Below, one piece after another: positions 3,787 to 60,277 of a DNA stretch of 64,000 bases (the stretch's first letter is position 1; each line of letters begins with the position of its first letter). The DNA is from Candidatus Levyibacteriota bacterium. Its GTDB lineage: Bacteria > Patescibacteriota > Microgenomatia > Levybacterales > UBA12049. The notes under the pieces are model-generated. The model made no database searches and had not been told where the DNA came from. It worked only from the letters and a program-made list of their open reading frames with translations. Where the stretch lies: the NCBI GenBank assembly GCA_963790825.1, contig CAWBPM010000003.1, positions 125,681-189,680 on the forward strand, given 5' to 3'. A program made the position numbers and the translations under genes.

Positions 3787-4383
3787 TTGAAGAGATATAT
3801 GAATAAATTAAAACTTTTTGTTGTTACCTTTTTGATCGCCTTAGGGATACTTGGATTTTTAACTGCGAAATATCTGATACCTACTGCTCAAGACACAACT
3901 GCCGTAGTAAAAGAAATGCGCGCGTTAAATAGGTGGGAAACGTCTTCTTTTACTGTTGAGAAAATAATTGACTCGGGAAATAGCGGAAATGTATTCCAAC
4001 AATTTCTTTTTGGGAATAGAATTCTTTTAATTGCTCAGGGGGAGGTAATTGGGGGATTTGATTTATCTCACTTCTCCGAAAACGATATCAAAATTCAAGG
4101 ATCAAGTATCCGCCTTACCCTGCCTGCTCCTCAAATATTAGTAGCACAGATTGACAATTCAAAGACGAGAGTCTATGACCGCCAGCAAGGACTGCTTGTT
4201 CCTGCAAATAATAATTTAGAATCGGATGCGCTGGTTAGCGCGCAAAAGTCAATTCAGGAAACTGCATGCAGCGAAGGCATACTTACTACTGCTTCAAGAA
4301 ATGCTAAATTACAGCTCACTTCAATTCTTACATCTTTTCATTTTACTAATATCACTATCACAATTCCCACCGGACATTGTTAG
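3787..4383 (+). CDS. DUF4230-like membrane-anchored protein
   Basis: 198 aa with a single N-terminal TM helix then a soluble domain. Architecture and length match the DUF4230 family. Confidence 0.4.
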   Translation: MKRYMNKLKLFVVTFLIALGILGFLTAKYLIPTAQDTTAVVKEMRALNRWETSSFTVEKIIDSGNSGNVFQQFLFGNRILLIAQGEVIGGFDLSHFSENDIKIQGSSIRLTLPAPQILVAQIDNSKTRVYDRQQGLLVPANNNLESDALVSAQKSIQETACSEGILTTASRNAKLQLTSILTSFHFTNITITIPTGHC

Positions 4384-4516
4384 AACACTAAGATAATAAG
4401 TTAAGTAACACTGCTTTTTTTATGGTCAATTATTTCTCTGACTGAGATTATTTATTCTTTCAGGAAAAGATTGTGTTGTGTTATGATTATTTCTAAAACG
4501 CAGACTTACGACCATA

Positions 4517-6214
4517 ATGAGAACCCGTACCTATCTACTTCTATTGTTTTTCTTAGGATTTCTTGTTTATTCTTCTGCTTTGTTCAACAACTTCGTGGGT
4601 GATGACGATTTGCAGATTGTTAGAAATACTCAGGTTCATTCGATTATAAATTTTCCCAATTTTTTTACCAGCGGTACCTATGAAACCGCCGGAGACACAC
4701 AAACAGTAGGTCTTTTTTACCGCCCCCTGATGACTACTGTCTACTCACTATTGTATACTTTTTTCGGTCCAAATCCTTTTGCGTTTCATTTATTTCAGAT
4801 ACTTTTGCAAATTACCAACGCGGTCCTGCTTTACTATTTTCTGAAATATTTTTTAGCGGAAGTAACATCCTTTTTTTGTTCTCTATTTTTTCTTATACAC
4901 CCTATCAATGTTGAGGCAGCGGTACATAGCGCTAACTTACAAGAAATGCTTTTCTTCTTTTTCGGCATGGCTGCGCTTCTTTTACTGCAACGCGTAAAGG
5001 AAAATAAAAATATAATTTCAGTACTTTTATTATTACTTTTTTCCTTGCTCTCAAAAGAAACGGGAATACTTTTTTTAGCAGTTAGCGGCGTGTACTATAA
5101 AATGTTTGGAAAAAATAAGAGACGGTTTAGTTTTTTAGTTTTCGGCAGCATAATAATACTTATAATCTATGTTATTTTTAGGTATGGACTTGCCCATATG
5201 TATTTGGCTACTACGTCAATTGCGCCAATTACCCACGCACCGCTTCTTCAGAGATTGACAAATATTCCCGCGATTCTTTTTTATTATCTTAAAATATTCT
5301 TTTTTCCTATGGATATGGCGGCAGTACAATTCTGGATGATACGCACAATTTCGTTTAGGAACTTTTTTATTCCGCTTTTTTTTGACGCCTGGTTTTTTGT
5401 AGTGTTTTACTCAGGCTTTTTATGGATAAAGAGAAAACGCCGGGTATACACAAAAACATATCTCTTTTTTAGCATCTGGTTTATGCTGGGAATTATTCTT
5501 CATGTGCAAATTCTTCCCCTTGATGCCACGGTTGCAGATCGCTGGTTTTACTTCCCGTTTGTCGGAATAATAGGAATGTCGGGTATTCTTATTCAGGAAC
5601 TTAAAATTACAAAAAAATATGTAAAATTAACGGTAACTATTCTGATTCTTATTCTTTGCTTTTTGTCTATTCTGTCTTTTCTACGGGTTTTGCAATGGAG
5701 GGATGAATTGACACTTTATAGTCACGATATACATACTGCTCCAGGAAATTTCATCATTGATAATGAGTACGCAAGTGCGTTGATAAAAAATGATCAGTTT
5801 GAAGAGGCAAAAAAATATCTTAGTGAATCGATTAAAGAATATCCGTATTCGGCAAATCTCAATAATATGGCAATTGTATATGCGTCGGAAAGAAACATCA
5901 ACATGGCGGATCAATATTTTCAAAAAGCAATCTTAAGAAGTGACAACTTTTCAATCTACGAGAATTATGCAAACTTCCTGCTGTATTATAAAAATCCGGC
6001 GTCGGCAATTCTTTTTACAAAACAAGCCTTAGTAAAGTTTCCCGTTAGTCCGGGATTATGGCTAAGCCTGGGGAAAGCAGAATATATAGAGGGCGCTACA
6101 CAAGCGGCAATTACGGCGGTAAAAAAATCTTACATTATTCAGCCAAACGCGATGACGGAAAGCACATATAAACGAATGGAGCAGAGTATCCAATTGCCAA
6201 AATTGAAATTATGA
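4517..6214 (+). CDS. Polytopic membrane protein with C-terminal TPR repeats (TMTC/PMT-like putative glycosyltransferase)
   Basis: ~10 predicted TM helices in the N-terminal 400 aa. C-terminal TPR-like repeats (EEAKKYLSESIKEYPYSANLNNMAIVYA...). Confidence 0.45.
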   Translation: MRTRTYLLLLFFLGFLVYSSALFNNFVGDDDLQIVRNTQVHSIINFPNFFTSGTYETAGDTQTVGLFYRPLMTTVYSLLYTFFGPNPFAFHLFQILLQITNAVLLYYFLKYFLAEVTSFFCSLFFLIHPINVEAAVHSANLQEMLFFFFGMAALLLLQRVKENKNIISVLLLLLFSLLSKETGILFLAVSGVYYKMFGKNKRRFSFLVFGSIIILIIYVIFRYGLAHMYLATTSIAPITHAPLLQRLTNIPAILFYYLKIFFFPMDMAAVQFWMIRTISFRNFFIPLFFDAWFFVVFYSGFLWIKRKRRVYTKTYLFFSIWFMLGIILHVQILPLDATVADRWFYFPFVGIIGMSGILIQELKITKKYVKLTVTILILILCFLSILSFLRVLQWRDELTLYSHDIHTAPGNFIIDNEYASALIKNDQFEEAKKYLSESIKEYPYSANLNNMAIVYASERNINMADQYFQKAILRSDNFSIYENYANFLLYYKNPASAILFTKQALVKFPVSPGLWLSLGKAEYIEGATQAAITAVKKSYIIQPNAMTESTYKRMEQSIQLPKLKL

Positions 6215-6289
6215 AGTTCAAAAACAGATTATTTTTAGTTTTAGCTGCTATACTGTAGAGGATTTTTTTTATAAAGTCGAAGGCGGATT

Positions 6290-6865
6290 ATGAAATATAG
6301 AGAAAAAATATTTACCGGTGACGGGGTAAAAGGGCAAGATTTTACTAATTGTGAATTTCTGAATTGCAAATTTTTGGGAGCTAACCTACGATTTACCTCT
6401 TTTACCCGGTGTATATTTAGAACATGCGATCTGTCTTCTGTTATTTTTACCATTACCTCTTTTGCAAACTGCAGTTTTCCCGAAAGCAGATTAAGTAATC
6501 TCGACTTTTCCGATGCTCAAATAAAAGAATGTGACTTTTCTAAAACAATAATGAAAAACTGCGTTCTCCAGCAACTCAAAACAGGAAGCAAAAATGAGAG
6601 AAAGAAATTTAATTTAGCAAATTCAATATTTGATAGTGCTGACTTATCGGGAACGCTATTTTTTCTTTGCAGTTTAAAAGGAGTAGATTTTAAAAAAGCA
6701 AATCTGGAGAATGTTGTTTTCGACCGCTGCAATCTAAAAGAAGCTAATTTGGCGGGTGCGAATATCAACGGGACAACATTTACAGATTGTGCAGTAGAAA
6801 AAACTATCTTGGATCTGGACGGATTTATCGCTTTCGGAAATTCAAAAGGATTTATATTGGAATAA
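6290..6865 (+). CDS. Pentapeptide-repeat protein
   Basis: Tandem A(D/N)Lxx pentapeptides throughout (ANLRFTSF..CDLSSVIF..ANLENVVFDRCNLKEANLAGANINGTTFTDC). Confidence 0.8.
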   Translation: MKYREKIFTGDGVKGQDFTNCEFLNCKFLGANLRFTSFTRCIFRTCDLSSVIFTITSFANCSFPESRLSNLDFSDAQIKECDFSKTIMKNCVLQQLKTGSKNERKKFNLANSIFDSADLSGTLFFLCSLKGVDFKKANLENVVFDRCNLKEANLAGANINGTTFTDCAVEKTILDLDGFIAFGNSKGFILE

Positions 6866-6974
6866 CAAAATGTTATTTAATAAATATGCAAACAAATTAG
6901 ACGGATTACCCTGAAAAAATATTGGCAGATGTCAAAATATTTCTGTGAATGATACTATTACAAGAAGTAGACCT

Positions 6975-7628
6975 TTATGATTCTTCGATGAGCTCCGCTT
7001 CAAGCTTCTTTAAATCTTTTACAATAAGCACGTTTTTAGTAAAGGTTACGAGTCTCTTTTCTTCCAGATGCTTCATTTCGCGACTTACCGTTTCCCGAGT
7101 CAAGCCTGTTTGCAGGGCAAAGTCTTTTTGAGTAGTTTTTATATGAATATTTCTATGTGAACCGTGAGGTGAACCGAATCGTTTTGTTGAAATTATTATT
7201 TCCAATGTGAGTCTTTTATATGCACTTCCCGACATAAGATAGACCATGCGACTGAGAAGTCCGTCCATGCCTTTAAATAGTCTTGCGGTTAAGTCAAAAA
7301 GCACATCAGGTTCTTCTCTAACAAAGGCTAATACGTCCTCTTTAGGCGCCCGCCAGACTTCAGCCGGTGTGATAGCCTCATGATAGTAGCCATTCGGAAG
7401 GTTACTTACAACCCACATCATCGGAAAAAAAGATGGTGCTTTATAGATATTTACTATTACTTCATTGCCTTGTCTAGTAATATAGTAGACCCGCACTGTA
7501 CCGCTCTTCAGATAGAATATTCCGGCGGGATTATCCCCGGCTAAAATGAGTAATTGCCCTTTCTTGTACTGTAAATAGTTATATTTAGCAAAGAATTTCT
7601 CCAGTTTTCTTTTTATTTTTTCTTGCAT
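6975..7628 (-). CDS. Crp/Fnr-family transcriptional regulator
   Basis: N-terminal cNMP-binding beta-barrel region and C-terminal HTH (DFALQTGLTRETVSREMKHLEEKRLV). ATG at 7628 chosen; the longer ORF from 7754 looks like read-through. Confidence 0.7.
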   Translation of the reverse strand: MQEKIKRKLEKFFAKYNYLQYKKGQLLILAGDNPAGIFYLKSGTVRVYYITRQGNEVIVNIYKAPSFFPMMWVVSNLPNGYYHEAITPAEVWRAPKEDVLAFVREEPDVLFDLTARLFKGMDGLLSRMVYLMSGSAYKRLTLEIIISTKRFGSPHGSHRNIHIKTTQKDFALQTGLTRETVSREMKHLEEKRLVTFTKNVLIVKDLKKLEAELIEES

Positions 7629-7727
7629 ATGCCAACTATTATACACCTCGAGCGTGATTTGGATCACAATACTTCGTTGTGTTTCCCTATCGCAGCGAAA
7701 AATCTTTTGCTGTATACTACACTTACC

Positions 7728-9269
7728 ATGCGCGTAGCAAGTCAAGCAAAGCATCGTGCAGCTAAAAATATCCTATCTCCACCCAAAACGATGCGGGTAC
7801 TTGACCGCTCAACGAATATTGAGCAGTTACGTTATGAAATTTCCGCGATTGAAAGTGAAAATCAATTACTTCGATTGTTGCTGTCTTCATCTTCAGATCC
7901 AATTCTTATTACTTCATCCAAGGCGAAAATTTTGTTTGTAAATCCGGCATGGGAAAGACTAACGGGCTATAGTTTATCCGAGGTAGAAGGAAAAACTCCC
8001 CGTATTTTCAGCAGCGGCAAAACAGCGAAAAAAGTATATCGGCAGTTATGGACAGCGCTGACAAACGGTGTATCATTTACTACGGAAGAGATTATAAATA
8101 AGGACAAGCAGGGACAGGAATATCAGATTCATTCTTCTTTTTTTCCGGTCACGAACCATAAGAAACTTGAACTCTATGTTCAATTACAACATGACATTAC
8201 CGAAAGAAAAAGGCTGGAGAGGTCTCTGCATTATCATACTTTAATCACAGAACACGTTGCGGAAGGAGTTTGTCTTATTCGTATAACAGATGGTGTTATT
8301 GTATATACCAACCCAAAATTTGAAAAAATGTTCGGATATACCAGTGGCGAGCTTACCGATAAACCCTTTTCTTTTTTATGTTTTGCAAAAGATGAAAAGA
8401 CAGCAAAGAAAATAGCACAAAAGATTTTACAAACCCTGCGGAAACAAGAAACTACAATATATGAGACTCGTAGTATTAGAAAAGATCGGACATCTCTTTG
8501 GTGCAAAGTGACTGTTTCGCAGTTTAATCATCCGGAATTTGGAGATGTTTGGATAGCGATCCACGAAGATATAAGCGAATTTAAGAGGCTTGAAGAGCTA
8601 CGGAGAGAATTTCTTTCAGCCGTTGCCCATGAGTTAAAAACGCCGATAACGGTTTTAAAACTTATTACTCAGTCTCAAATGGAGAAAGCGAAAAAGTTAG
8701 CGCAAAAAAATATCTCTGAGGATGAATTTTTGCTTATTGATCGTGAACTTAGCAGACTGACAAGACTTATCGATGATCTGCTGGACAGCTCCAGGATGGA
8801 AAGCGGAAAATGGCAGATGAACTTCGTACCTACAAATCTCAGCAGACTTACAAACGACGTTGTAAATAAAATGCGTTTATTTGCTAAAAACCACAAAATC
8901 ATTCTTCACGAAATTGCGAATATTTTCGTTATCGCTGATAATCAACGGCTTGAACAAGTATTGTATAATTTAATCTCTAATGCTATTAAATATTCGCCTG
9001 AAAAAACTACCATTACCGTTGATATGCAAGTTAAAAAGAAACTGGTAATAGTCTCAATTACAGATCAGGGTATCGGTATTTCCAAAGAGAAACAAGAACT
9101 TATTTTTGATAGATTTTATCAAGTAAAATCCGCACATCCGAATGGGTTTGGACTTGGATTATATATTTCAAAAGAAATTATTACCCGTCATAAAGGTAAA
9201 ATTTGGCTAAAATCGAAAGAAAAAAGAGGAAGTACCTTTTATTTTTCCTTACCCCTTACAAAAGAGTAA
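7728..9269 (+). CDS. Cytoplasmic PAS-domain sensor histidine kinase
   Basis: Two PAS-like blocks (FVNPAWERLTGYS; YTNPKFEKMFGYTSGEL). H-box AHELKTPITVLK. HATPase_c N/G boxes (LISNAIKYSP..DQGIGIS..GLGLGLYISKEII). No TM segment. Start ambiguous (7728 or 7791). Confidence 0.8.
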   Translation: MRVASQAKHRAAKNILSPPKTMRVLDRSTNIEQLRYEISAIESENQLLRLLLSSSSDPILITSSKAKILFVNPAWERLTGYSLSEVEGKTPRIFSSGKTAKKVYRQLWTALTNGVSFTTEEIINKDKQGQEYQIHSSFFPVTNHKKLELYVQLQHDITERKRLERSLHYHTLITEHVAEGVCLIRITDGVIVYTNPKFEKMFGYTSGELTDKPFSFLCFAKDEKTAKKIAQKILQTLRKQETTIYETRSIRKDRTSLWCKVTVSQFNHPEFGDVWIAIHEDISEFKRLEELRREFLSAVAHELKTPITVLKLITQSQMEKAKKLAQKNISEDEFLLIDRELSRLTRLIDDLLDSSRMESGKWQMNFVPTNLSRLTNDVVNKMRLFAKNHKIILHEIANIFVIADNQRLEQVLYNLISNAIKYSPEKTTITVDMQVKKKLVIVSITDQGIGISKEKQELIFDRFYQVKSAHPNGFGLGLYISKEIITRHKGKIWLKSKEKRGSTFYFSLPLTKE

Positions 9270-9281
9270 GGAGGTGAATAT

Positions 9282-9530
9282 ATGGCAAAAACAAGAAAAG
9301 AAGAGACGTTTCGCATGAACGGTGAAAGTTTACTTAAAAAAGTAAAGGAGTTAATTGCCGAAGGAAACGTCAGAAAAATTACTATTAAAGACAAAAGCGG
9401 AAAAGAACTGATTGTTTTACCCTTAACTATCGGCGTAGTCGGTGCAGTGTTGGCTCCTGTCTTAGCAGCGGTCGGCGCAATTGCAGCACTGATTAGCGAA
9501 TGCTCTATCACCGTAGAAAGAGAGTTGTAG
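9282..9530 (+). CDS. DUF4342 family small protein
   Basis: 82 aa. GNVRKITIKDKSGKELIVLPLTIGVVGAVLAP...ISECSITVERE matches the DUF4342 consensus. Strong RBS AAGGAGGT 8 nt upstream. Confidence 0.65.
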   Translation: MAKTRKEETFRMNGESLLKKVKELIAEGNVRKITIKDKSGKELIVLPLTIGVVGAVLAPVLAAVGAIAALISECSITVEREL

Positions 9531-9549
9531 ACGAGGAAAAAGCGGCGCT

Positions 9550-9918
9550 TTAGCGAAAAAGTCTTAGAATATACGGAACAAAAATAAGTATACCGACTAT
9601 GACAGATCCAAATGCCGATACTAAAACCATACCGGCAGCTACATCTTTAGCAATTTTTGCTTCTTCATGATGCTCTTTGGTAATCAAATCTACCATCTTC
9701 TCAATAGCACTGTTAATCATTTCCGTAGTGAACACGAGCAAAATCATGACGCCCAGAATTCCCATTTCAAACGGATTTACATCAAGCATGAGACTTGCAA
9801 GAATAACAATCAGAGCAACAAAAAAATGGATCCTAAGATTTTGATCATTCTTAAATGCGTAACGGAGTCCCGAGAATGCATGTCCGAAGGCTCGAAATAA
9901 TCTTAAAATGTCTATCAT
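9550..9918 (-). CDS. dgkA: Diacylglycerol kinase / undecaprenol kinase (DgkA family)
   Basis: 122 aa with 3 TM helices. HAFSGLRYAFKNDQNLRIHF..TEMINSAIE..D motifs of prokaryotic DgkA. Confidence 0.75.
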   Translation of the reverse strand: MIDILRLFRAFGHAFSGLRYAFKNDQNLRIHFFVALIVILASLMLDVNPFEMGILGVMILLVFTTEMINSAIEKMVDLITKEHHEEAKIAKDVAAGMVLVSAFGSVIVGILIFVPYILRLFR

Positions 9919-9927
9919 AAATATTTT

Positions 9928-10506
9928 CTAGGCGTGTTTTGTCAAATAATAGACAAAAATCGCTAATAGTAATCCGATCATAACACCAACACACACTTCC
10001 AGTATAGTATGTCTTTTTGTTTTTACTCTTGCCCAGCCAAGCACAGGAATCAGAAGAAGTAAAAGAAAATACCACCCGCTAAAAGCAATACCGAGCGCAG
10101 TAAAAAGCGCGGTACTCGTAGCTTCATGCATACTGGCTTTTACCCAAATCGTTACAATACTGGAAATAAAAATGCCAATAATAATACCAAACGTTACTGC
10201 AAGAAGAATAAACGGTGCTTTCAGAACAAATAATACCAGCATGTAAAGAAGGGTTATAATACTTAAGAATAAAAACAGTCGGGGCCGATCTTTTTTACGC
10301 GAAACATCCAGATCGCTAAACACACCACGATGCACCTCATAGACCATATATAACGTAACGATTCCTAAAAAAAACACCGAGATTATTTCCCATTCCAAAG
10401 CTACTTGAAAGTTTCTGGTCGCTCTCTCGACTAAAATATAAGGGAAGGCTAAAAATAATATGATCGGATTAAAGATATTGGAGATAATCCGGGCTAAAAA
10501 CATCAT
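9928..10506 (-). CDS. PAP2-like integral membrane phosphatase (possible undecaprenyl-diphosphatase)
   Basis: Six TM helices. Loose PAP2 motifs: K-x6-RP (SRKKDRPRL), SMHEA, R-x5-H (RVKTKRHT). Lies next to dgkA. Assignment is tentative. Confidence 0.35.
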   Translation of the reverse strand: MMFLARIISNIFNPIILFLAFPYILVERATRNFQVALEWEIISVFFLGIVTLYMVYEVHRGVFSDLDVSRKKDRPRLFLFLSIITLLYMLVLFVLKAPFILLAVTFGIIIGIFISSIVTIWVKASMHEATSTALFTALGIAFSGWYFLLLLLIPVLGWARVKTKRHTILEVCVGVMIGLLLAIFVYYLTKHA

Positions 10507-11912
10507 AAGTCGTTACTACTAACTCTCGCTAAAACATTTTCTTTTCCCAGAATTTGCAAAGACTCCGGGAGCGGCAAGCCTCTCTCGGAACCGGTTAAAA
10601 GATAATAAAGAACCGGCATGCGGATAGAGTATTTGGTCATGATTAATTTCAATACCATGAAAATTTCATCTTTTTCCCACGGATTTACTGTCTTAAGTAA
10701 TGTATATAATTCTTCTTTTACTTGTTGTTCTACATTATTTCGCGGAGTATTTTTGGGATTTATAAAAAAATGGCGCGTCAGTTCTTCAAAATCTTTTAAT
10801 GTTGTCATTCTTACATGAACCAAAGGAATAAGCTGATCAAAAAGTTTGTCGTCAATATCTGCCCATTTTGGATTAAATATCTTGAGACGTTTTTTTAAAT
10901 TTTCGGGGGAAAGCATTTGTATATACTGCTGGTTCATCCAGGTTAATTTAGTTAAATCAAAAATCGGGGCAACCGGACGGATATCTTTAAGATCAAACAA
11001 ATTAATAAATTCCTCGAGCGAAAATATTTCTTTCTCTTTAGGATGGGTCCAACCAAGAAGTGCTAAGAAATTGAGTATTGCTTCAGGCAAGTATCCTTCT
11101 TCGCGGTACCACGTAACATTCGTATGACCATGGCGTTTTGATAATTTTGATTTGTCTGGGTTACGAAGAGTCGCGGTATGGTAGATAAGCGGTACTTTCC
11201 AAGCAAAATATTGATAGAGTAACACATGTTTTGGCGTAGAGCTAATCCACTCCTCAGCACGGACCACATGCGTAATACCCATTAAATAGTCATCCACAAC
11301 AACTGCAAGATGATAGGTCGGAAAGCCGTCTGATTTTATGAGAATCTGTTCAGTTACTTGTTGGCTTTCGAATTTAATTTCGCCGCGAATTTCATCTTTA
11401 AATAAAATAATCATATCTTTCGGAACCCGCATACGGACAACCCAATTTTTTTCAGAACGTGACAACATTTCGGCTATAGTTGTTGGGGGTTCTTCTGAAA
11501 TAGTTGCAATAGTTGACCCGGATTTTTCTTTGTTAGTATAGTCTTTTTTTCGGCCTGCCTGATCCCGGGGAAGATAGGCAAAGTAAGCTTTCCCTATGTC
11601 AAGAAGTTTTTGTGCATAGGTATGGTAGGTTCCGAGCCGTTCTGATTGACGATATGGACCGTACTTTCCGTTCTTTCTGGGACTTTCGTCTTCCGGTAAA
11701 CCAAACCAATCGAGGGAATTAAAAATAACCTCTTCGGCTCCCGAAACAAAACGGCTTCTGTCCGTGTCTTCAATCCGAACCAGAAATTTTCCATTATGTT
11801 TTTTTGCGTATGCATAATTAAATAGCGCCTGATAAATAGTACCGATATGTGGATAGCCTGTAGGACTCGGTGCGATTCGTAACCGAACCGATGAATTATT
11901 TTTTTTATTCAT
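10503..11912 (-). CDS. gltX: Glutamate--tRNA ligase
   Basis: RIAPSPTGYPHIGT (HIGH region) and KLSKRHG (KMSKS-type). 469 aa. Confidence 0.85.
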   Translation of the reverse strand: MNKKNNSSVRLRIAPSPTGYPHIGTIYQALFNYAYAKKHNGKFLVRIEDTDRSRFVSGAEEVIFNSLDWFGLPEDESPRKNGKYGPYRQSERLGTYHTYAQKLLDIGKAYFAYLPRDQAGRKKDYTNKEKSGSTIATISEEPPTTIAEMLSRSEKNWVVRMRVPKDMIILFKDEIRGEIKFESQQVTEQILIKSDGFPTYHLAVVVDDYLMGITHVVRAEEWISSTPKHVLLYQYFAWKVPLIYHTATLRNPDKSKLSKRHGHTNVTWYREEGYLPEAILNFLALLGWTHPKEKEIFSLEEFINLFDLKDIRPVAPIFDLTKLTWMNQQYIQMLSPENLKKRLKIFNPKWADIDDKLFDQLIPLVHVRMTTLKDFEELTRHFFINPKNTPRNNVEQQVKEELYTLLKTVNPWEKDEIFMVLKLIMTKYSIRMPVLYYLLTGSERGLPLPESLQILGKENVLARVSSNDL

Positions 11913-11987
11913 AATCTACAAAAAATTGCAATTTCACTAAATGCTCGTCTGTTCTTGCATTGTAACGCATCTTTTCCTTATACTCAA

Positions 11988-13079
11988 GATATGCCCACTC
12001 TTCATCAAGTTACCGAGGAAACAAAAACTACCGCTGTCTGGGGAAGTATTAGTGTTGTAATACTTATTGTCCTGGTTATGATATTTAACGCACTGAGACC
12101 TATTCTGTTTCCCGTTCGTGAGCCGGCTCCGACAGTTTCATTTGCTAAACTTCCACCGATTATTTTTCCAGGTAACACTTCCGGGGTAAATCTTTCTTAT
12201 ACCATAGATACGCTTAGCGGCGATTTGCCTGTTTTAGCAGATCAAATGCTCGTGTATCAAGAATTGCCAACGCAAACGCCGCATTTATACATGCTTCAGC
12301 AGGAAAGCAATAAAATTAACGCTATCGGGTTTTCCGGGCCGAATATAACTGAGATCCAGTTCTCAGAAACGCTTTATTCTTGGACGCAATCAGGCGATCC
12401 GCCAAAAACAATTGTTTTAGACTTCCTTTCAAATAACTTTAATCTTACCTCTCCCTATGCTTCTTCTCAGGCTGTTTTAACCAGTAAATTTAGTGGGAAC
12501 GAAAGTACAGCTCTCAATATTGCGTCGAATTTTTTGAATGCAATGGGTGCAAATCTAAGTGATCTGGATTCATCGAAAACTACGGTGCAAAGATTAATGT
12601 TTGGAAATGGAACGCTTGTTCCTGCTTCTCTTCCTGCGCCTACACAGTTTATGCGGGTTGATTTTTTCCAAAATGATATCTTGAAATTCCCAGGGGATAC
12701 ACAAAAAGTCCACATCTACTACCCCAATCCCCCTCACTCAACGATGAATTTTTTAATTACTTCTGAAAGCAGTGGGTCCGGTCCTGCATCAAATGTGGTT
12801 AATGCAAATTTTCTTCACCAGAATATTGATTTTACAAATTCCGGTACTTATCCGATAAAGACAGCATCTGAAGCCGCGACAGAATTAGAAAACGGAGGTG
12901 GCTACATCGCCTCTAATTTTTCAAGGACAAATAAAATATCAATTAAGGACGTTGAGCTTGGATACTTTGCAGGAGACACTACTCAGCAATATTTGATGCC
13001 AATTATTGTTTTTTCTAATCCTGAGACCGGCTTTTATGCGTATGTGTCCGCAGTTCGGGATGAATGGATTCAAAAGTAA
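11988..13079 (+). CDS. Hypothetical secreted/membrane-anchored protein
   Basis: N-terminal TM/signal segment then a Ser/Thr/Asn-rich extracytoplasmic domain with no recognisable motif. ATG at 11988 preferred over the TTG at 11955. Confidence 0.35.
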   Translation, partial: DMPTLHQVTEETKTTAVWGSISVVILIVLVMIFNALRPILFPVREPAPTVSFAKLPPIIFPGNTSGVNLSYTIDTLSGDLPVLADQMLVYQELPTQTPHLYMLQQESNKINAIGFSGPNITEIQFSETLYSWTQSGDPPKTIVLDFLSNNFNLTSPYASSQAVLTSKFSGNESTALNIASNFLNAMGANLSDLDSSKTTVQRLMFGNGTLVPASLPAPTQFMRVDFFQNDILKFPGDTQKVHIYYPNPPHSTMNFLITSESSGSGPASNVVNANFLHQNIDFTNSGTYPIKTASEAATELENGGGYIASNFSRTNKISIKDVELGYFAGDTTQQYLMPIIVFSNPETGFYAYVSAVRDEWIQK

Positions 13080-13112: not shown

Positions 13113-14210
13113 CTACGGATTTATAAAATAAATATTACCCCTTACCAAACTGATCAGTTCTTTTGTGTCTGCAAAACGATTGTCACTTTGCATAACGATT
13201 AAGATAAATGTATGATTATCTTCTACTTCCGAAGTTACGAGAACTTGGCCTGCTTCGTCGGTAGTTCCGGTTTTTATACCCGTTATTCCATCAGTTCCCA
13301 GTAGTTTATTTAAGTTTAGCAAACTGAATGATTTTTTGCCGTTAACTGTTGTAATAACTTTCGTTTTTGTACCGACTACCTGGGAAAATGCCTTATTTTT
13401 CATTGCGTATGAGGCAAGCCGTGCCAGATCATAGACCGTCGTGTAATCCCAATCATCATTTAATCCATCCGGATCTGCGAAATGGGTGTTATAAAGATTC
13501 AGCTCTTTTGCTTTCGCATTCATCCGGGCCACAAACGCAGATACCCCTCCCGGATAATTCTCTGCCAACGCGTAAGCCACGTCGTTTCCCGACGGCAGCA
13601 ATAAACCGTATAGCATATCCGGAAAATATAATGCATCGCCCTTTTTCAAACCAACCCGTGAGCCTTCAATAGTATCTGTAAGACAAGTAATAATGGAATC
13701 GTTTTTATAGTATTCAAGGGATATTAATGCTGTCATAATTTTAGTCGTAGATGCCATTGAAAAACGAAGCGTTTTATTTTTTGAGAATAACGTAACGCCT
13801 GACGCGCTTTCAAGAATAATTGCCGCGTTAGCGCTAAGAACAGGAGTACGGATCTGCTTCATTACCGGATAAGGATTAATAATTTGCGCTGATTTTGTAT
13901 TATGAGAAAATTTACTTTGTTTTATATACCGCTCTAAAGAAATACTAATAAAAAAAAGAATTAGAAAAATGCCAAGCAAAATGAGTGGTATTAGGATGAG
14001 TTGTAAATTCTTTTCCTGAGTTAGAAAAAAATTCTTCCCTTGACGTAAATAGGTTCGCAGGTTTTTTTTAGAAGACAGATTAGTCGGCTTTCCACTTGGT
14101 GATTTTTGCAGGGTAGCGGCTTTCCCTGCGAATTTTTCTTTTTTATCTACAGTTTTTTTATCAACTGTTTTTTTCTTTTTTGTCAATTGTTGAGAATCTT
14201 TCATCGACAC
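13113..14210 (-). CDS. D-alanyl-D-alanine carboxypeptidase (S11 family, PBP5/DacA-like)
   Basis: SxxK motif (MASTTKIMTAL), SGN motif (LLPSGNDVAYALAE), KTG-like GIKTGTT. Lys-rich N-terminal region plus TM anchor. Confidence 0.75.
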   Translation of the reverse strand: MSMKDSQQLTKKKKTVDKKTVDKKEKFAGKAATLQKSPSGKPTNLSSKKNLRTYLRQGKNFFLTQEKNLQLILIPLILLGIFLILFFISISLERYIKQSKFSHNTKSAQIINPYPVMKQIRTPVLSANAAIILESASGVTLFSKNKTLRFSMASTTKIMTALISLEYYKNDSIITCLTDTIEGSRVGLKKGDALYFPDMLYGLLLPSGNDVAYALAENYPGGVSAFVARMNAKAKELNLYNTHFADPDGLNDDWDYTTVYDLARLASYAMKNKAFSQVVGTKTKVITTVNGKKSFSLLNLNKLLGTDGITGIKTGTTDEAGQVLVTSEVEDNHTFILIVMQSDNRFADTKELISLVRGNIYFINP

Positions 14211-15537
14211 GCTCCATATCTCGCGGGAAAAGGGATGCTTCGCGAATATTATTTAATTCTAACAGTTTCATGGTTAATCTCTCCAGTCCGAAAGAAAACC
14301 CTCCTTCAGGCGGCATGCCATATTTAAATGCCATAAGATATATTCCAAAATTCGCAGGATTTACTCCTTTTTTCTCCATTGCCGAAATGAGCTGATTGTA
14401 GTCATTTATCCTCTGGCTTCCGCTAAGAATTTCAAGTCCGCGAAATAGTAAGTCATAAGATAGACTATATTCCGGATTTTTCGGATCCGGACACGTATAA
14501 AAGGCTCGTTTTTTCGTTGGATAATGGGTGATTGTGACGAAATCCGATTGGTGTTTTTCTTTCGCCCAAAGATAAATTTCCTTTTCATCTTCAGGGTTTA
14601 AGTCAAGTTCTTTTGCTAAATCTCTCCCCGTTCGTTTGCTGATAATTTCTTGTGCCTGACGGAGTGTAAGACGTGGAATAGAAATCGGTACCAGTGGTTT
14701 ATCTACAGCAAATTTTTCTAAGATATCCGCATGTTTCTCTGAAACATTTCTTATCATATTTGCCCCGACAAATTCCAACGCGTCCAGTAACTCTTCAAAA
14801 TTTTCTATAAATGCAATTTCAACATCCATTTGTGTTGCTTCCGAGATATGCCGCGTTGTTACCGACGGTTCTGCCCGATAGGCTTTCGCTATCGTATAAA
14901 CCCTTTCAAATACTCCTACCATTATTTGCTTATAGAGTTGCGGACTTTGGGTCATAAATGCTTCGTGTCCATAATAATCAAGTTTAAACACTTCTGCGCC
15001 TCCCTCTGTCGCGCCGGATGCAATTGTCGGGACAAAGATTTCTGTGCAGTCAAGAGCGAGTGCTGCTTTGCGAAATTCTTCAGCCAAAGCAGCCTGGATG
15101 GTAAAAATCATTTGTACCCGCGGATGTTTCAGCGTTAACGACCTATGATCCAGAAGTGTCGGTAATTCGAGATTCAATTCTTCTTCTCCCATATCAAAAG
15201 GCAAGGCTTCGGAGACCGCAAGGATTTCAAGTTCGCTTGCTTCGAGTTCCACCGTGCCGCTGGCAATTTTTGGATTTATTAGTTGGTCCGGTCTTTTGTT
15301 CACTTTTCCAGTAATAGCAACCGCATACTCACTGCGAAGTCCGGATGCTGCGGCATGCGCTTTTGCAGATACTTGCGGATTAAAAATAACCTGTAGTAGT
15401 CCCGATCTGTCCCGAAGATCAATGAAAATCAATTTGCCGTGATCACGCCTGGCATGTACCCAGCCTTTCACCATTATTTCTTCACCTGTCCGCCTGGGCG
15501 TTTCTTTGACCAAAATTCTTCGTAATGCTTTTGTCAT
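14161..15537 (-). CDS. aspS: Aspartate--tRNA ligase, class IIb, short archaeal/non-discriminating type
   Basis: N-terminal OB-fold (VKGWVHARRDHGKLIFIDLRDRSGLLQV). Class II motif 3 (GMPPEGGFSFGLERLTM). ~459 aa with no GAD insertion. ATG at 15537 preferred over the longer ORF. Confidence 0.7.
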   Translation of the reverse strand: MTKALRRILVKETPRRTGEEIMVKGWVHARRDHGKLIFIDLRDRSGLLQVIFNPQVSAKAHAAASGLRSEYAVAITGKVNKRPDQLINPKIASGTVELEASELEILAVSEALPFDMGEEELNLELPTLLDHRSLTLKHPRVQMIFTIQAALAEEFRKAALALDCTEIFVPTIASGATEGGAEVFKLDYYGHEAFMTQSPQLYKQIMVGVFERVYTIAKAYRAEPSVTTRHISEATQMDVEIAFIENFEELLDALEFVGANMIRNVSEKHADILEKFAVDKPLVPISIPRLTLRQAQEIISKRTGRDLAKELDLNPEDEKEIYLWAKEKHQSDFVTITHYPTKKRAFYTCPDPKNPEYSLSYDLLFRGLEILSGSQRINDYNQLISAMEKKGVNPANFGIYLMAFKYGMPPEGGFSFGLERLTMKLLELNNIREASLFPRDMERVDERFSTIDKKEKNS

Positions 15538-15620
15538 AATTATAAATCGCCTGTTCCATATCATACTAGGAATTCGTTTACTTGACAAGCACAAATTTAT
15601 AGGATTATAATCGTTTTGTG

Positions 15621-15656
15621 CTATGAATTTTAAGTATCGTTTTTATCAGATCTCAC
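15621..15656 (+). promoter_or_regulatory. Near-consensus sigma70-type promoter (TTGACA-N18-TATAAT), followed by a ~100-nt structured leader
   Basis: ttgacaagcacaaatttataggattataat. Downstream, three mutually exclusive hairpins (atctcac/gtgagat; gagatttgg/ccaaatctc; atctcc/ggagat+T9) end in a U-tract just before the ATG at 15757. Confidence 0.45.
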
Positions 15657-15756
15657 ACATTAATCTCCTTGTCCTTATGGGATGAGTGAGATTTGGCGTT
15701 TAGTGTACATACCAAATCTCCTCATGATGCGGGAGATTTTTTTTTGGGGTAAAAAT

Positions 15757-17139
15757 ATGGCAGTAGTAGAATTAGAAAAACTAACAATTCGAGAAGTAGT
15801 ACCTAAAAAAAACGGTAATTTTTATGTCCTTAAACAAGACGGCGCGCTTAGGTTAAAGGATAATGTAACATTTGGTGGCCTTGGATCTACTTCTTCTGAT
15901 GGCTGGCGAATAGCGACAGACACTGAGAAGGCTAAGGTACACAATATGCGTACACAAATTATTTCGATATTAGGAATTGAAAGAATATCACAAATTCCGG
16001 GTCTCATTAATAATCCTGGAGCTAGAAAACAAGCTAGTGACACTGCATATGAATTAATTGGCGGTATGTATGGTATGGAACAAAAACCAGAAAGTGAAAC
16101 AGAATTAGAGCGTAAACAACGACGGGAAAGAATTGCTGTTCGCGTCAAAGGATATGGAGATATAGCAAACAGTGTTATTACCCATTTAGCAGAGGAACAG
16201 TTACCCAGGTCTCATGCTGATCTTACGATGGTAAACGAAATTAAAAATGCCAGCGATCCTGTAGAATTACTTCTTTTGGCTCACGATAATCGTTATCATA
16301 GACGGGTCCGGTTCGAAGCTGCACGAAAACTTCAGTTAATGGCTTTGGCAGCTGCTCTCGATCAAAGAGAACAAGAATCCGGTGTCGAAGAAAAAGGAAA
16401 GCAACTTGATATCTTTCTTGACGAACATGTATATAGTCAGGCCCGAAAACGGGGAGAAACAATACTTGCTTATTTATACAGTACACATGATCCGGAAACA
16501 TTTGATGCTACTTCGGTTAGAGTTTTGCATAAAACCGAAGCCGACAGACAAAGATTATTACTTAAGCCATACGAGAAAATAACTCCGGTTCAACGCAGAA
16601 CAGTCCAGTCAAATGGTCAGGAAATACCGGTATATGTAAACACCCGTCAAAAAGATCCGGTCGCAAGTGTATTAAAATTGCTGCGTAAAGGACATGAGAA
16701 TCCTGCAGTAGCAGTAGATGATAGCTTAGGACTTATGGCTGTACTTGAAACAGAAAACGATCTGGATAATTTCAGAACTCATTTGGTAAAAGGTGCAACA
16801 GAAGCCGGATCCATGTTACAAGAGGAAGAGACTCAAAACACGCTTCATGGAGAGAAACACGTGCCTTCCAGCCCCGGTAGTTCTCCTGATATACGGATGT
16901 ATAAAAGTCATATGAGAATTAACGGAATGAGATTCGAATTCCAGGGATATACTATTTTCTCATATTTAGATAGTTTATATCGTAGAGATAGTGGTCACTA
17001 CGAATATGACGTTAAACGGTTATTTAATAGCGGTGTGGTATCATTATTATTCCCGGAGACCGTATATGGTTACAACGAGGAAGACATGAGAGAATCGGCA
17101 ATTAAAAAAGTAAGAAGTGAGGTAGAATCGCAATATTAA
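15757..17139 (+). CDS. Hypothetical 461-aa protein with HEAT-like repeat and weak RelA/SpoT-like nucleotidyltransferase motifs
   Basis: PBS-lyase/HEAT-like PVELLLLAHDNRYHRRVRFEAARKL. C-terminal half has R-x-K..S.L.KL.RKG, DDSLGLMAVL...ENDLD and YKSHMRI...FEFQGYT...H.YEY, loosely like RelA/SpoT synthetase blocks (RxKSxxSIxxKIxRK / DIAGIRII..DD / GYRSLH / EIQIRT..HW.YK). Divergent; needs profile search. Confidence 0.4.
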   Translation: MAVVELEKLTIREVVPKKNGNFYVLKQDGALRLKDNVTFGGLGSTSSDGWRIATDTEKAKVHNMRTQIISILGIERISQIPGLINNPGARKQASDTAYELIGGMYGMEQKPESETELERKQRRERIAVRVKGYGDIANSVITHLAEEQLPRSHADLTMVNEIKNASDPVELLLLAHDNRYHRRVRFEAARKLQLMALAAALDQREQESGVEEKGKQLDIFLDEHVYSQARKRGETILAYLYSTHDPETFDATSVRVLHKTEADRQRLLLKPYEKITPVQRRTVQSNGQEIPVYVNTRQKDPVASVLKLLRKGHENPAVAVDDSLGLMAVLETENDLDNFRTHLVKGATEAGSMLQEEETQNTLHGEKHVPSSPGSSPDIRMYKSHMRINGMRFEFQGYTIFSYLDSLYRRDSGHYEYDVKRLFNSGVVSLLFPETVYGYNEEDMRESAIKKVRSEVESQY

Positions 17140-60160: not shown

Positions 60161-60277
60161 GTCTGAGCATTAGATAAAGTATTACATATTTATGTGTATT
60201 TGACAAGTCGCATATTAAAAAAATATTTTAGTGATACTACCTATTAGAAAATGCCAAGGTAATCCATAAACTACAAC

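Follow-up and report, generated by a model that had tools for sequence, protein, structure and literature searches.

A predicted RelA/SpoT-type protein of a widespread unnamed family encoded behind an attenuator-like leader in a Levyibacteriota genome

RelA/SpoT homologue (RSH) enzymes control the main bacterial starvation response. RSHs of the long type (Rel, RelA, SpoT) have, at the N-terminus, a helical domain followed by a synthetase domain, and the small alarmone synthetases (SASs) RelQ (SAS1/YjbM) and RelP (SAS2/YwaC) (PDB ids: 5ded, 6fgj and 6ewz) are proteins of ~210 residues with the α/β synthetase fold of the Pfam family PF04607. Divergent RSH members can make ppApp or modify tRNA, and RSH enzymes of the toxSAS type, including fused RSH toxins (CapRel, FaRel2, PhRel2, Tas1), use the same synthetase fold on other acceptors such as the CCA ends of tRNA and ATP/ADP (PMC7229694; bioRxiv 10.1101/2021.04.30.441581). 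Here, an unnamed 460-residue protein and the leader in front of its gene are described from a 64,000-nucleotide stretch of DNA (the window) of a Candidatus Levyibacteriota bacterium (contig CAWBPM010000003.1, positions 125,681–189,680), a Microgenomates-like lineage of the candidate phyla radiation (CPR) type. The leader resembles the attenuators of amino-acid operons (trpL, pheL, hisL, leuL, ilvL type), which have a promoter, a short open reading frame (ORF), four segments with mutually exclusive 1:2, 2:3 and 3:4 pairings and a U tract after the 3:4 hairpin, and in which a ribosome that terminates at the leader stop codon covers segment 2. The reading favoured here, with moderate confidence, is that of a non-canonical pyrophosphokinase under leader-peptide attenuation, a two-domain protein that belongs to a widespread unnamed family. 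All functional statements below are drawn from sequence, predicted structure and genomic context.

The C-terminal half of the protein is, with high probability, a homologue of the RSH synthetase domain, as judged from a predicted structure and from profile comparisons. The AlphaFold2 (AF2) model, built with 29 homologues, has a mean per-residue confidence (pLDDT) of 86 and a predicted template-modelling score (pTM) of 0.86, and it consists of a helical domain and an α/β domain (Table 1). In a Foldseek search of the Protein Data Bank (PDB) the first 35 ranks are all held by SAS, Rel, SpoT or CapRel structures. The best match is S. aureus RelP (6fgj, E = 3.9e-4, probability 1.0), and the others include B. 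subtilis RelQ, the N-terminal domains of Rel and SpoT, and CapRel, with FaRel2 ranking lower. The top matches in BFVD are phage proteins annotated as RelA/SpoT, together with Tas1. A sequence profile of 41 diverse family members matches the RelP chains of the PDB over the Syn1–Syn2 region (E ~7e-4), and ten of the 41 reach PF04607 at the equivalent position with 18–22 bits (gathering score 27). When this profile is aligned by hhalign with a RelQ profile, whose query sequence was checked first and is identical to PDB 5ded, the match (E = 4.2e-5) takes in 123 columns, which begin at Syn1 and end with the EIQIRT strand (Syn4).

The original prediction had placed a RelA/SpoT-type fold with altered key residues in this half of the protein, and the PDB and BFVD structure searches, the profile match to RelP with its sub-threshold PF04607 signal and the hhalign match to RelQ together support both the fold and the motif reading. 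Profile and structure searches for a nucleotidyltransferase fold return RSH synthetases, PF04607 itself staying below its gathering score. The motifs named at the time are present in the order given: R297-x-K299 followed by S304..K307LLRKG, D321-D322-SLGLMAVL, YKSHMRI (382–388), FEFQGYT (393–399) and H414-YEY. The computed alignments bear out the assignment of the blocks, in which the RxK block opens the series, DDxxGxM stands for DxxGxR and E-x-Q-x-x-T for EIQIRT.

The protein follows RelQ and RelP in the order of its motifs (R-x-K-x3-(S)-x2-K-x2-R-K, D-x-x-G, a β-strand and E-x-Q-x-x-T) and in most of its predicted donor site. Based on the residue roles described for RelQ and S. aureus RelP (SaRelP) by Steinchen et al. 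2018 (PMC5794853), six ligands are retained. R297 corresponds to the adenine-stacking Arg (B. subtilis RelQ R46, SaRelP R78). K299 (K48, K80), K307 (K56, K88) and R310 (R59, R91) correspond to residues that contact the ATP phosphates, D322 (D72, D107) to a Mg2+ ligand and E394 (E139, E174) to the second Mg2+ ligand. All six, R297 included, are either invariant or at least 90% conserved in the family. K299, K307 and D322 never vary among the 41 diverse members, which are 21–38% identical, and at least 90% of these keep R310 and E394; D322 is also invariant in the alignment of close relatives. The EIQIRT strand reads E-F-Q-G-Y-T in the window protein and E-x-I/Q-x-H-T in the family. Four other positions are replaced. 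The Ser that contacts the α-phosphate (S52, S84) is A303, next to S304, and the diverse-family consensus keeps Ser. The second adenine-stacking Arg (R77, R112) is M327, an invariant Met in the close family. The G-loop Tyr (Y116, Y151) is I379, Thr in most members, and the His of the YxxxH motif (RelQ H120) is an invariant Lys, K383, in an alignment of the G-loop to RelQ that is of moderate confidence. The G-loop Tyr within Y-x-x-x-H is critical for the binding of guanosine nucleotides (PMC5794853).

From this distribution we infer catalytic-type selection on the half of the site that takes the donor (ATP-Mg) and a rebuilding of the acceptor half. Since the residues for ATP phosphates and Mg2+ are retained, pyrophosphate transfer from ATP is most likely kept, and it is reasonably probable that the protein is a catalytically active pyrophosphokinase. 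Since Met takes the place of one adenine-stacking Arg and the Tyr of the G-loop is missing, the acceptor is probably not GDP or GTP bound in the canonical manner, and the loss of this Tyr makes a non-(p)ppGpp activity plausible.

Two other readings of the same residues were considered. The protein could be a canonical SAS that makes (p)ppGpp or pGpp and has diverged too far for Pfam. It would explain the intact set of ATP and Mg2+ ligands, and RelP and RelQ are the nearest structural matches. An HMM search of all window ORFs with a RelQ profile finds no other, canonical RSH gene in the 64 kb, and NUDIX enzymes, to which some distant relatives are fused (see below), are known (p)ppGpp hydrolases (PMC3153485). 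This reading is nevertheless unlikely, because it has to accommodate I379 at the G-loop Tyr position, occupied by Thr in most of the family, and the invariant K383 in place of the YxxxH His. Alternatively, the RSH fold could be that of a catalytically dead pseudo-enzyme, a sensor or scaffold that merely binds a partner or a nucleotide; the pseudo-hydrolase of RelA offers a dead-domain precedent (PMC3153485). The equivalents of R77 and Y116 are lost, and the window protein alone also changes the near-invariant H398 and N400. Set against this are the two Mg2+ carboxylates and four phosphate-binding basic residues that are invariant or nearly so at 21–38% identity, the pattern expected from selection for catalysis, and the pseudo-enzyme is quite improbable.

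In terms of architecture, the window protein is more than twice the length of an SAS and has an extra helical N-terminal domain of ~230 residues, and nothing indicates either the SAS tetramer or the pppGpp allosteric site. The order of a helical domain followed by a synthetase domain is that of the long RSHs, and the Foldseek alignments to Rel N-terminal domains span ~400 columns. It departs from the long RSHs in that its helical domain is no HD hydrolase and in that it lacks TGS and ACT domains, and the TM-scores to the Rel N-terminal domains are just 0.2–0.27. A separate AF2 model of residues 1–232 (pLDDT 77) has no significant structural relative in the PDB by Foldseek, the best matches being phycocyanin and 14-3-3 (E ≥ 0.4, TM ≤ 0.23). 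This half had been described as HEAT-like; with an E-value of 0.4 at best for any structural neighbour and no Pfam repeat match, that description does not hold. An HD-hydrolase identity was also considered and rejected, since the domain contains no HD motif and has no structural match. The domain is taken as family-specific, and its role is probably regulatory. The window protein carries a charged insertion of ~12 residues within QKPESETELERKQRRERI (16084–16137, residues 110–127), at the point where the long helix 116–148 begins; the insertion is absent from all 28 aligned homologues.

The family to which the protein belongs is large and unnamed. Pfam, PADLOC and PHROGs contain no meaningful family match for the protein, as the original prediction had noted for lack of a clear family, and PDB sequence searches with the single protein or with a close-homologue profile return nothing useful. 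Full-length homologues of ~430–450 residues and ~40% identity are numerous, and every one is labelled 'hypothetical protein'. In a 50%-identity library of 1.84 billion representatives, 230 cluster representatives match at E ≤ 1e-3 and 77 at E ≤ 1e-30, and relatives are encoded in at least 443 GTDB species genomes. Most hosts are Desulfobulbales/Thermodesulfobacteriota or Thiothrix, and a few are of CPR type, e.g. a Candidatus Levybacteria metagenome-assembled genome (MAG; locus L009). A metagenome scan for further CPR-clade loci returned Desulfobulbales-type loci nearly exclusively.

The sole named families with any match to the protein are TIGR04552 (24.8 bits, cut-off 125) and TIGR04562 (24.2 bits, cut-off 140) of NCBIfam. 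The match covers residues 144–363, i.e. the end of the helical domain and Syn1–Syn2, and is found in three of the 41 diverse members. TIGR04552, an uncharacterised family named in Bdellovibrio and Myxococcus genomes, is thus at most a distant sister of the family described here. HMM-based RSH classifications reportedly distinguish 12 SAS subgroups (2011) and 30 SAS subfamilies (2020). As the PF04607 signal is absent, such classifications may well have overlooked the present family. A literature search on TIGR04552, SAS–NUDIX fusions, CPR ppGpp and structure-based RSH discovery, which was not exhaustive, found no description of it. We regard the protein as a divergent branch of the RSHs whose domain architecture is new.

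In CPR-type genomes the gene has a conserved position. At least nine distinct loci, whose proteins are 40–45% identical (the window; L002/L163/L164/L082; L009; L162; L165–168; L170; L171; L172; L173/L174), show the order S11 peptidase–aminoacyl-tRNA synthetase (aaRS)–gene–recJ–cca. This setting bears on the defence role, of toxSAS or CapRel type, that had been suggested for the protein. A toxin, or an effector directed against phages, with the 3′ ends of tRNA as its target for pyrophosphorylation would fit the presence of CapRel, FaRel2 and Tas1-like structures among the Foldseek matches, the absence of the GDP/GTP-specific Tyr and the tRNA-related neighbours (aaRS and CCA-adding enzyme). The Foldseek scores of CapRel and FaRel2 are, however, poorer than those of the housekeeping enzymes RelP and RelQ. 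A small overlapping antitoxin gene is absent, both flanking genes being housekeeping genes read from the other strand. Nor is there another antitoxin partner or an antitoxin domain fused to the protein, whose extra domain is N-terminal and helical. No small partner gene is conserved across the CPR-type loci or across 80 genome loci. No PADLOC defence model matches the protein, and the neighbourhoods are those of housekeeping genes or, often in operon-like contexts, of nif/mod genes rather than defence islands. Given also the same housekeeping position in at least nine diverged genomes, the occurrence in hundreds of species and fusions in distant relatives to domains that act on small molecules, the defence role fails to find support and a toxSAS-like enzyme is very improbable.

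These fusions form a distant branch of proteins ~700–810 residues long (P0173, P0186, P0187, P0191, P0197, P0198, P0206, P0218, P0220; locus L169, 6001–8196). The helical and RSH-like core (residues ~30–440) is followed in most of them by a NUDIX domain (~600–720), which matches PF00293 above its gathering score. In P0187, P0191, P0197 and P0206, a phosphoribosyltransferase (PRTase)-like domain (~480–595) lies between the core and the NUDIX domain; it matches the xanthine phosphoribosyltransferase model NF006613 with E = 2e-10, below the cut-off of that model. The gene for P0187 is surrounded by genes for dihydrofolate reductase (DHFR), dUTPase and thymidylate kinase and by recR. By analogy, the fusion of the core to NUDIX, a nucleotide-diphosphate hydrolase, would mirror the pairing of synthetase and hydrolase in long RSHs. 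Because distant relatives fuse the core to PRTase-like and NUDIX domains, a small (purine) nucleotide is favoured over tRNA as the product, and for a small-nucleotide product as such the case is evenly balanced.

Outside the CPR-type clade the gene often lies near genes of nitrogen and molybdenum metabolism. Among the 80 genome loci, 38 (in Desulfobulbales, Thiothrix and Chromatiaceae) have at least one nif, molybdate or ammonium gene within 6 kb, in arrangements such as Amt–PII–OMP–GATase–[gene]–126-residue membrane protein–NifV–NifA–NifH or ModABC–NifV–[gene]–SelA. As the homologue is found recurrently beside nif, molybdate and ammonium genes, a link to nitrogen or molybdenum status is suggested in Desulfobulbales/Thermodesulfobacteriota, Thiothrix and Chromatiaceae. 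Homologues adjacent to nif/mod genes occur among loci L003–L081, e.g. L021, L028, L044, L051, L074 and L078 (around 4000–12000), and further such loci are L003, L026, L027, L035 and L048, the Thiothrix loci L024, L037, L045 and L046, and one Chromatiaceae MAG.

The leader of the window gene has the layout of an amino-acid-operon attenuator (Table 1). The TTGACA-N18-TATAAT promoter of the original prediction matches the consensus throughout, and its terminator-like stem with a T9 tract is recovered by a terminator scan. Promoter-like sites in the region overall are as many as in shuffled sequences (6 vs 6.0). The ATG of the candidate leader ORF lies 11 nt past the −10 element, which would leave a 5′ untranslated region (UTR) of ~3–5 nt, so that the ORF is near-leaderless, and its stop codon (TGA, 15683–15685) forms the opening bases of segment 2. 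Without a ribosome, the leader is predicted to fold into 1:2 and 3:4. The 2:3 helix appears in constrained folding once the 3′ arm of the terminator is omitted or segment 1 is masked, and the energy of this duplex (−15.5 kcal/mol) is exceptional among 2000 dinucleotide shuffles (p = 0.0005). The terminator-like hairpin (15714–15739) has an energy of −8.4 kcal/mol, and the T9 tract ends 11 nt 5′ of the start codon of the gene. The extended TTGACAAG-N14-17-TANNNT pattern has one further exact match in the window, at 60200–60229 on the + strand (two found vs 0.21 expected).

It is the comparison with orthologous loci, and not the fold of the window alone, that makes the leader more than chance. 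The attenuator architecture is present in six of the nine loci (window, L002, L009, L162, L165 and L172), so that both the architecture and the co-varying arms of the attenuator-like leader first noted in the window are kept beyond it. The promoter pattern of the six is TTGACA(AG), a spacer of 17–18 nt and a −10-like hexamer; TTGACAAG with a −10-like hexamer at 17–18 nt is kept at the orthologous position in each of the five loci that were aligned, and L170, L171 and L172 have it too. The six leader ORFs have 14–24 codons, start 5–17 nt past the −10 element and therefore have a very short 5′ UTR or none, and in every case the stop codon is found on the G-rich segment 2 or no more than 9 nt away from it. 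The 3:4 hairpin with T7–T9 ends 10–20 nt 5′ of the main ATG in all six loci. Segments 2, 3 and 4 co-vary between loci (GGGAGAT/ATCTCC, GGGAGGT/ACCTCC, GCGGGG/CCTCGC): they read GTGAGATTTGG, CCAAATCTCC and GGGAGATTT in the window, GGGGAGGT, ACCTCC and GGGAGGT in L009, and GCGGGGAT, TCCTCGC and GCGGGGG in L162. The complementarity of the upstream leader to segment 3 exceeds that of 2000 dinucleotide shuffles, with p = 0.0005, 0.004, 0.067, 0.0025, 0.079 and 0.002 for the six loci.

In constrained folding, the terminator is predicted in all six loci when the leader ORF is masked through its stop codon. With a mask that ends 4 or 7 codons before the stop, the antiterminator is predicted in four (window, L009, L162 and L172), and in L002 and L165 the terminator stays the minimum-energy fold. 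Ile, Leu, Val, Phe, Tyr and Asn are frequent in the leader peptides, with F-F in L009 and L165 and L-L-V-L in the window. Those of the window and L172 have Q-I-x-x-I-N-x-L in common, with three synonymous third-position differences, which lends weak support to a coding constraint on the ORF and is confounded with RNA pairing. In L170 (400–445) and L171 (about 1760–1803), the promoter reads TTGACAAG-N17-TATCTT, there is no leader, and the main ATG follows the −10 element by 8–10 nt. The sequence of these two loci implies a leaderless mRNA for the main gene; the true start in L170 is likely the second Met (MPKETHSNFY) rather than the one called. That this lineage translates leaderless messages from the promoter is thus plausible, and with it the translation of the leader ORFs. 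The attenuator seems to be restricted to the CPR-type clade; a crude terminator scan upstream of non-CPR homologues was uninformative, as many tblastn matches begin at residue 64.

On this evidence the leader is likely to be a regulatory terminator/antiterminator, and its control may quite possibly, if tentatively, be ribosome-mediated. Riboswitch-like control, which had also been proposed, is less likely than leader-peptide attenuation because of the lack of an Rfam match, the shortness of the leader and the positioned small ORF. In the window leader no Rfam family reaches its gathering score, the best being Phe_leader (18.8 bits, E = 1.4, gathering 55). Compared with the amino-acid-operon attenuators, the window leader differs in that it precedes an RSH-like gene and not a biosynthetic operon, its ORF is leaderless or nearly so, has no Shine-Dalgarno (SD) sequence and no evident run of a single codon, no Rfam leader family describes it, and the lineage is CPR-type. 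We regard it as a device of known type, the leader-peptide attenuator, in a new example from a lineage that is unusual for it.

Some of these features would equally suit a promoter-to-T9 unit that is a separate gene for a small RNA (sRNA) or a 20-residue micropeptide, or an antitermination system controlled by a ligand or a protein. The promoter and the efficient-looking terminator bound an RNA of ~125 nt, the leader ORF has neither an SD nor a regulatory codon run, and its start is GTG or ambiguous in three of the six loci. Such a unit is, on balance, not to be expected. The T tract stands so close to the main start in all six loci that there is no space for a separate promoter, and a co-varying antiterminator would be purposeless in a free-standing sRNA. 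No Rfam match was obtained, known riboswitches and the T-box included. Furthermore, the stop codon is placed at segment 2 in six of six loci, and in the leaderless orthologues an equal distance separates this same promoter from the start of the main gene.

The points that weigh against the pyrophosphokinase-and-attenuator reading concern both of its halves. Even at E ≤ 10, neither the window protein nor any of its 28 closest relatives is matched by PF04607. The Foldseek E-values are modest, and the TM-scores are low since a single domain matches. The hhalign probability to the RelQ profile is just 70%, and its significance required both the diverse 41-member profile and the RelQ profile; the close-family profile against the single RelQ sequence gives E = 0.31, which is not significant. 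Two residues that are important in canonical enzymes are replaced (RelQ R77 by Met, and Y116 by Ile, in most family members by Thr). Alone among aligned members, the window protein has Tyr for the near-invariant H398 and Ile for N400, and its own activity is therefore less certain than that of the family and may be reduced or lost. As for the leader, the folding energy of the window leader is not unusual (z = −1.5), and three orthologous loci are without the attenuator. The combined antiterminator complementarity (Fisher 1.4e-8) overstates the independence of the six leaders, which represent about three sub-lineages. The leader ORFs lack an SD, some (L009, L162 and possibly an alternative start in L009) start with GTG, and no consistent run of a regulatory codon is found in the six leader peptides.

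If the favoured reading of an attenuated, non-canonical pyrophosphokinase is correct, transcription from the strong promoter would normally terminate at the T9 tract. With a ribosome that reaches the leader stop codon, or with no ribosome, the 3:4 terminator would form immediately 5′ of the start codon. Were a ribosome to stall earlier in the leader ORF, segment 2 would be freed, the 2:3 helix would pre-empt the terminator, and RNA polymerase would read into the gene. Expression of the enzyme would thus rise when translation is impaired, in the direction of regulation that the pairing scheme suggests. The enzyme would use ATP-Mg to pyrophosphorylate an acceptor outside the canonical GDP/GTP mode, and its helical N-terminal domain may gate the activity. 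A wider version is doubtful: an unrecognised RSH branch with a non-canonical nucleotide messenger, a sensor domain of its own and, in some lineages, a NUDIX 'off-switch', which in CPR-type bacteria is induced by stalling on a leaderless leader peptide. Such induction would be a transcription-level analogue of the sensing of translation stress by RelA, in organisms with minimal regulatory repertoires.

A family present in at least 443 species, spanning sulfur-cycling Desulfobulbales, Thiothrix and CPR bacteria, escapes standard domain models. Because the catalytic core is kept and the acceptor site is rebuilt, it is a candidate for a new nucleotide-signalling activity, and the PRTase-like and NUDIX fusions and the nif/molybdate neighbourhoods are testable leads. 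If the attenuator is real, it would bring together, in a CPR lineage, attenuation by a leader peptide and leaderless translation, and it would tie the expression of an alarmone-type enzyme directly to translational status.

Table 1. Positions of the leader elements, the gene and the predicted protein domains and motifs in the window
Feature	Position	Strand	Basis
Sigma-70-type promoter: −35 TTGACA 15582–15587 (extended TTGACAAG), 18-nt spacer, −10 TATAAT 15606–15611	15582..15611	+	12/12 consensus
Candidate leader-peptide ORF, 20 codons, MNFKYRFYQISHINLLVLMG	15623..15685	+	Sequence reading
Segment 1, TCAGATCTCAC; predicted to pair with segment 2 absent ribosome	15646..15656	+	Unconstrained minimum-free-energy fold
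Segment 2, TGAGTGAGATTTGGC; putative 5′ arm of antiterminator, complements segment 3, resembles segment 4	15683..15697	+	Folding
Segment 3, CCAAATCTCCTC; common to putative antiterminator (with segment 2) and terminator (with segment 4)	15712..15723	+	Folding, terminator scan
Segment 4, GGGAGATTT, and T9 tract (15737–15745); 3′ arm of intrinsic-terminator-like hairpin	15731..15745	+	Terminator scan
Coding sequence of the unnamed-family 460-residue protein, including stop codon (17137–17139)	15757..17139	+	ORF list, homologue alignment
N-terminal all-α domain, residues ~48–225	15898..16431	+	AF2 models; motifs N160-E161 and R185-F-E-A-x-R-K-L192 invariant
C-terminal RSH synthetase-like α/β domain, residues ~236–457	16462..17127	+	Foldseek, profile search, hhalign
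Syn1-like basic motif R297-Q-K299-DPVAS-VL-K307-LL-R310-K311	16645..16689	+	Alignment to B. subtilis RelQ R46, K48, S52, K56, R59
Syn2-like motif D321-D322-S-L-G325-L-M327	16717..16737	+	Alignment to RelQ D72, R77
Syn4-like strand E394-F-Q396-G-Y398-T399	16936..16953	+	hhalign to RelQ E139-I-Q-I-R-T

The start of the coding sequence is the ATG at 15757, from which the homologues align (M-A-V-V-E), and the length first given as 461 residues is corrected accordingly to 460. A 485-residue version from the in-frame ATG at 15682 was rejected, as this codon falls inside the leader hairpins and the extension has no counterpart in the N-termini of homologues.

The whole 64-kb window (1–64000) has a G+C content of 38%, contains no tRNA genes and has no Rfam family at the gathering threshold. 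The gene was originally placed between aspS and recJ, and a Pfam scan of the neighbours agrees. The divergent upstream gene encodes a class-IIb aaRS that is aspS-like (PF00152 and PF01336), and the convergent downstream gene is recJ (Pfam DHH, DHHA1 and RecJ_OB), followed by the gene for the CCA-adding enzyme. Both flanking genes lie on the strand opposite to that of the RSH-like gene.

A contig of the L002/L163/L164/L082 group that is labelled 'Candidatus Sulfotelmatobacter sp.' (Acidobacteriota) and has 37% G+C shows the aaRS–[gene]–recJ–cca synteny and a leader like those of the window and the Levybacteria MAG, and it is probably a mis-binned CPR contig. The contigs of this group are DATMOG010000042.1, k141_108924 and Ga0210404_10000692. 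On the − strand of the window, the aaRS ORF (14161–15594) and the ORF of the S11 D-Ala-D-Ala carboxypeptidase (13113–14210) overlap by ~50 nt (14161–14210). The same overlap is called in orthologous loci, e.g. in L165 (463–1431 and 1388–2740), and because of this recurrence the two genes are probably co-transcribed.

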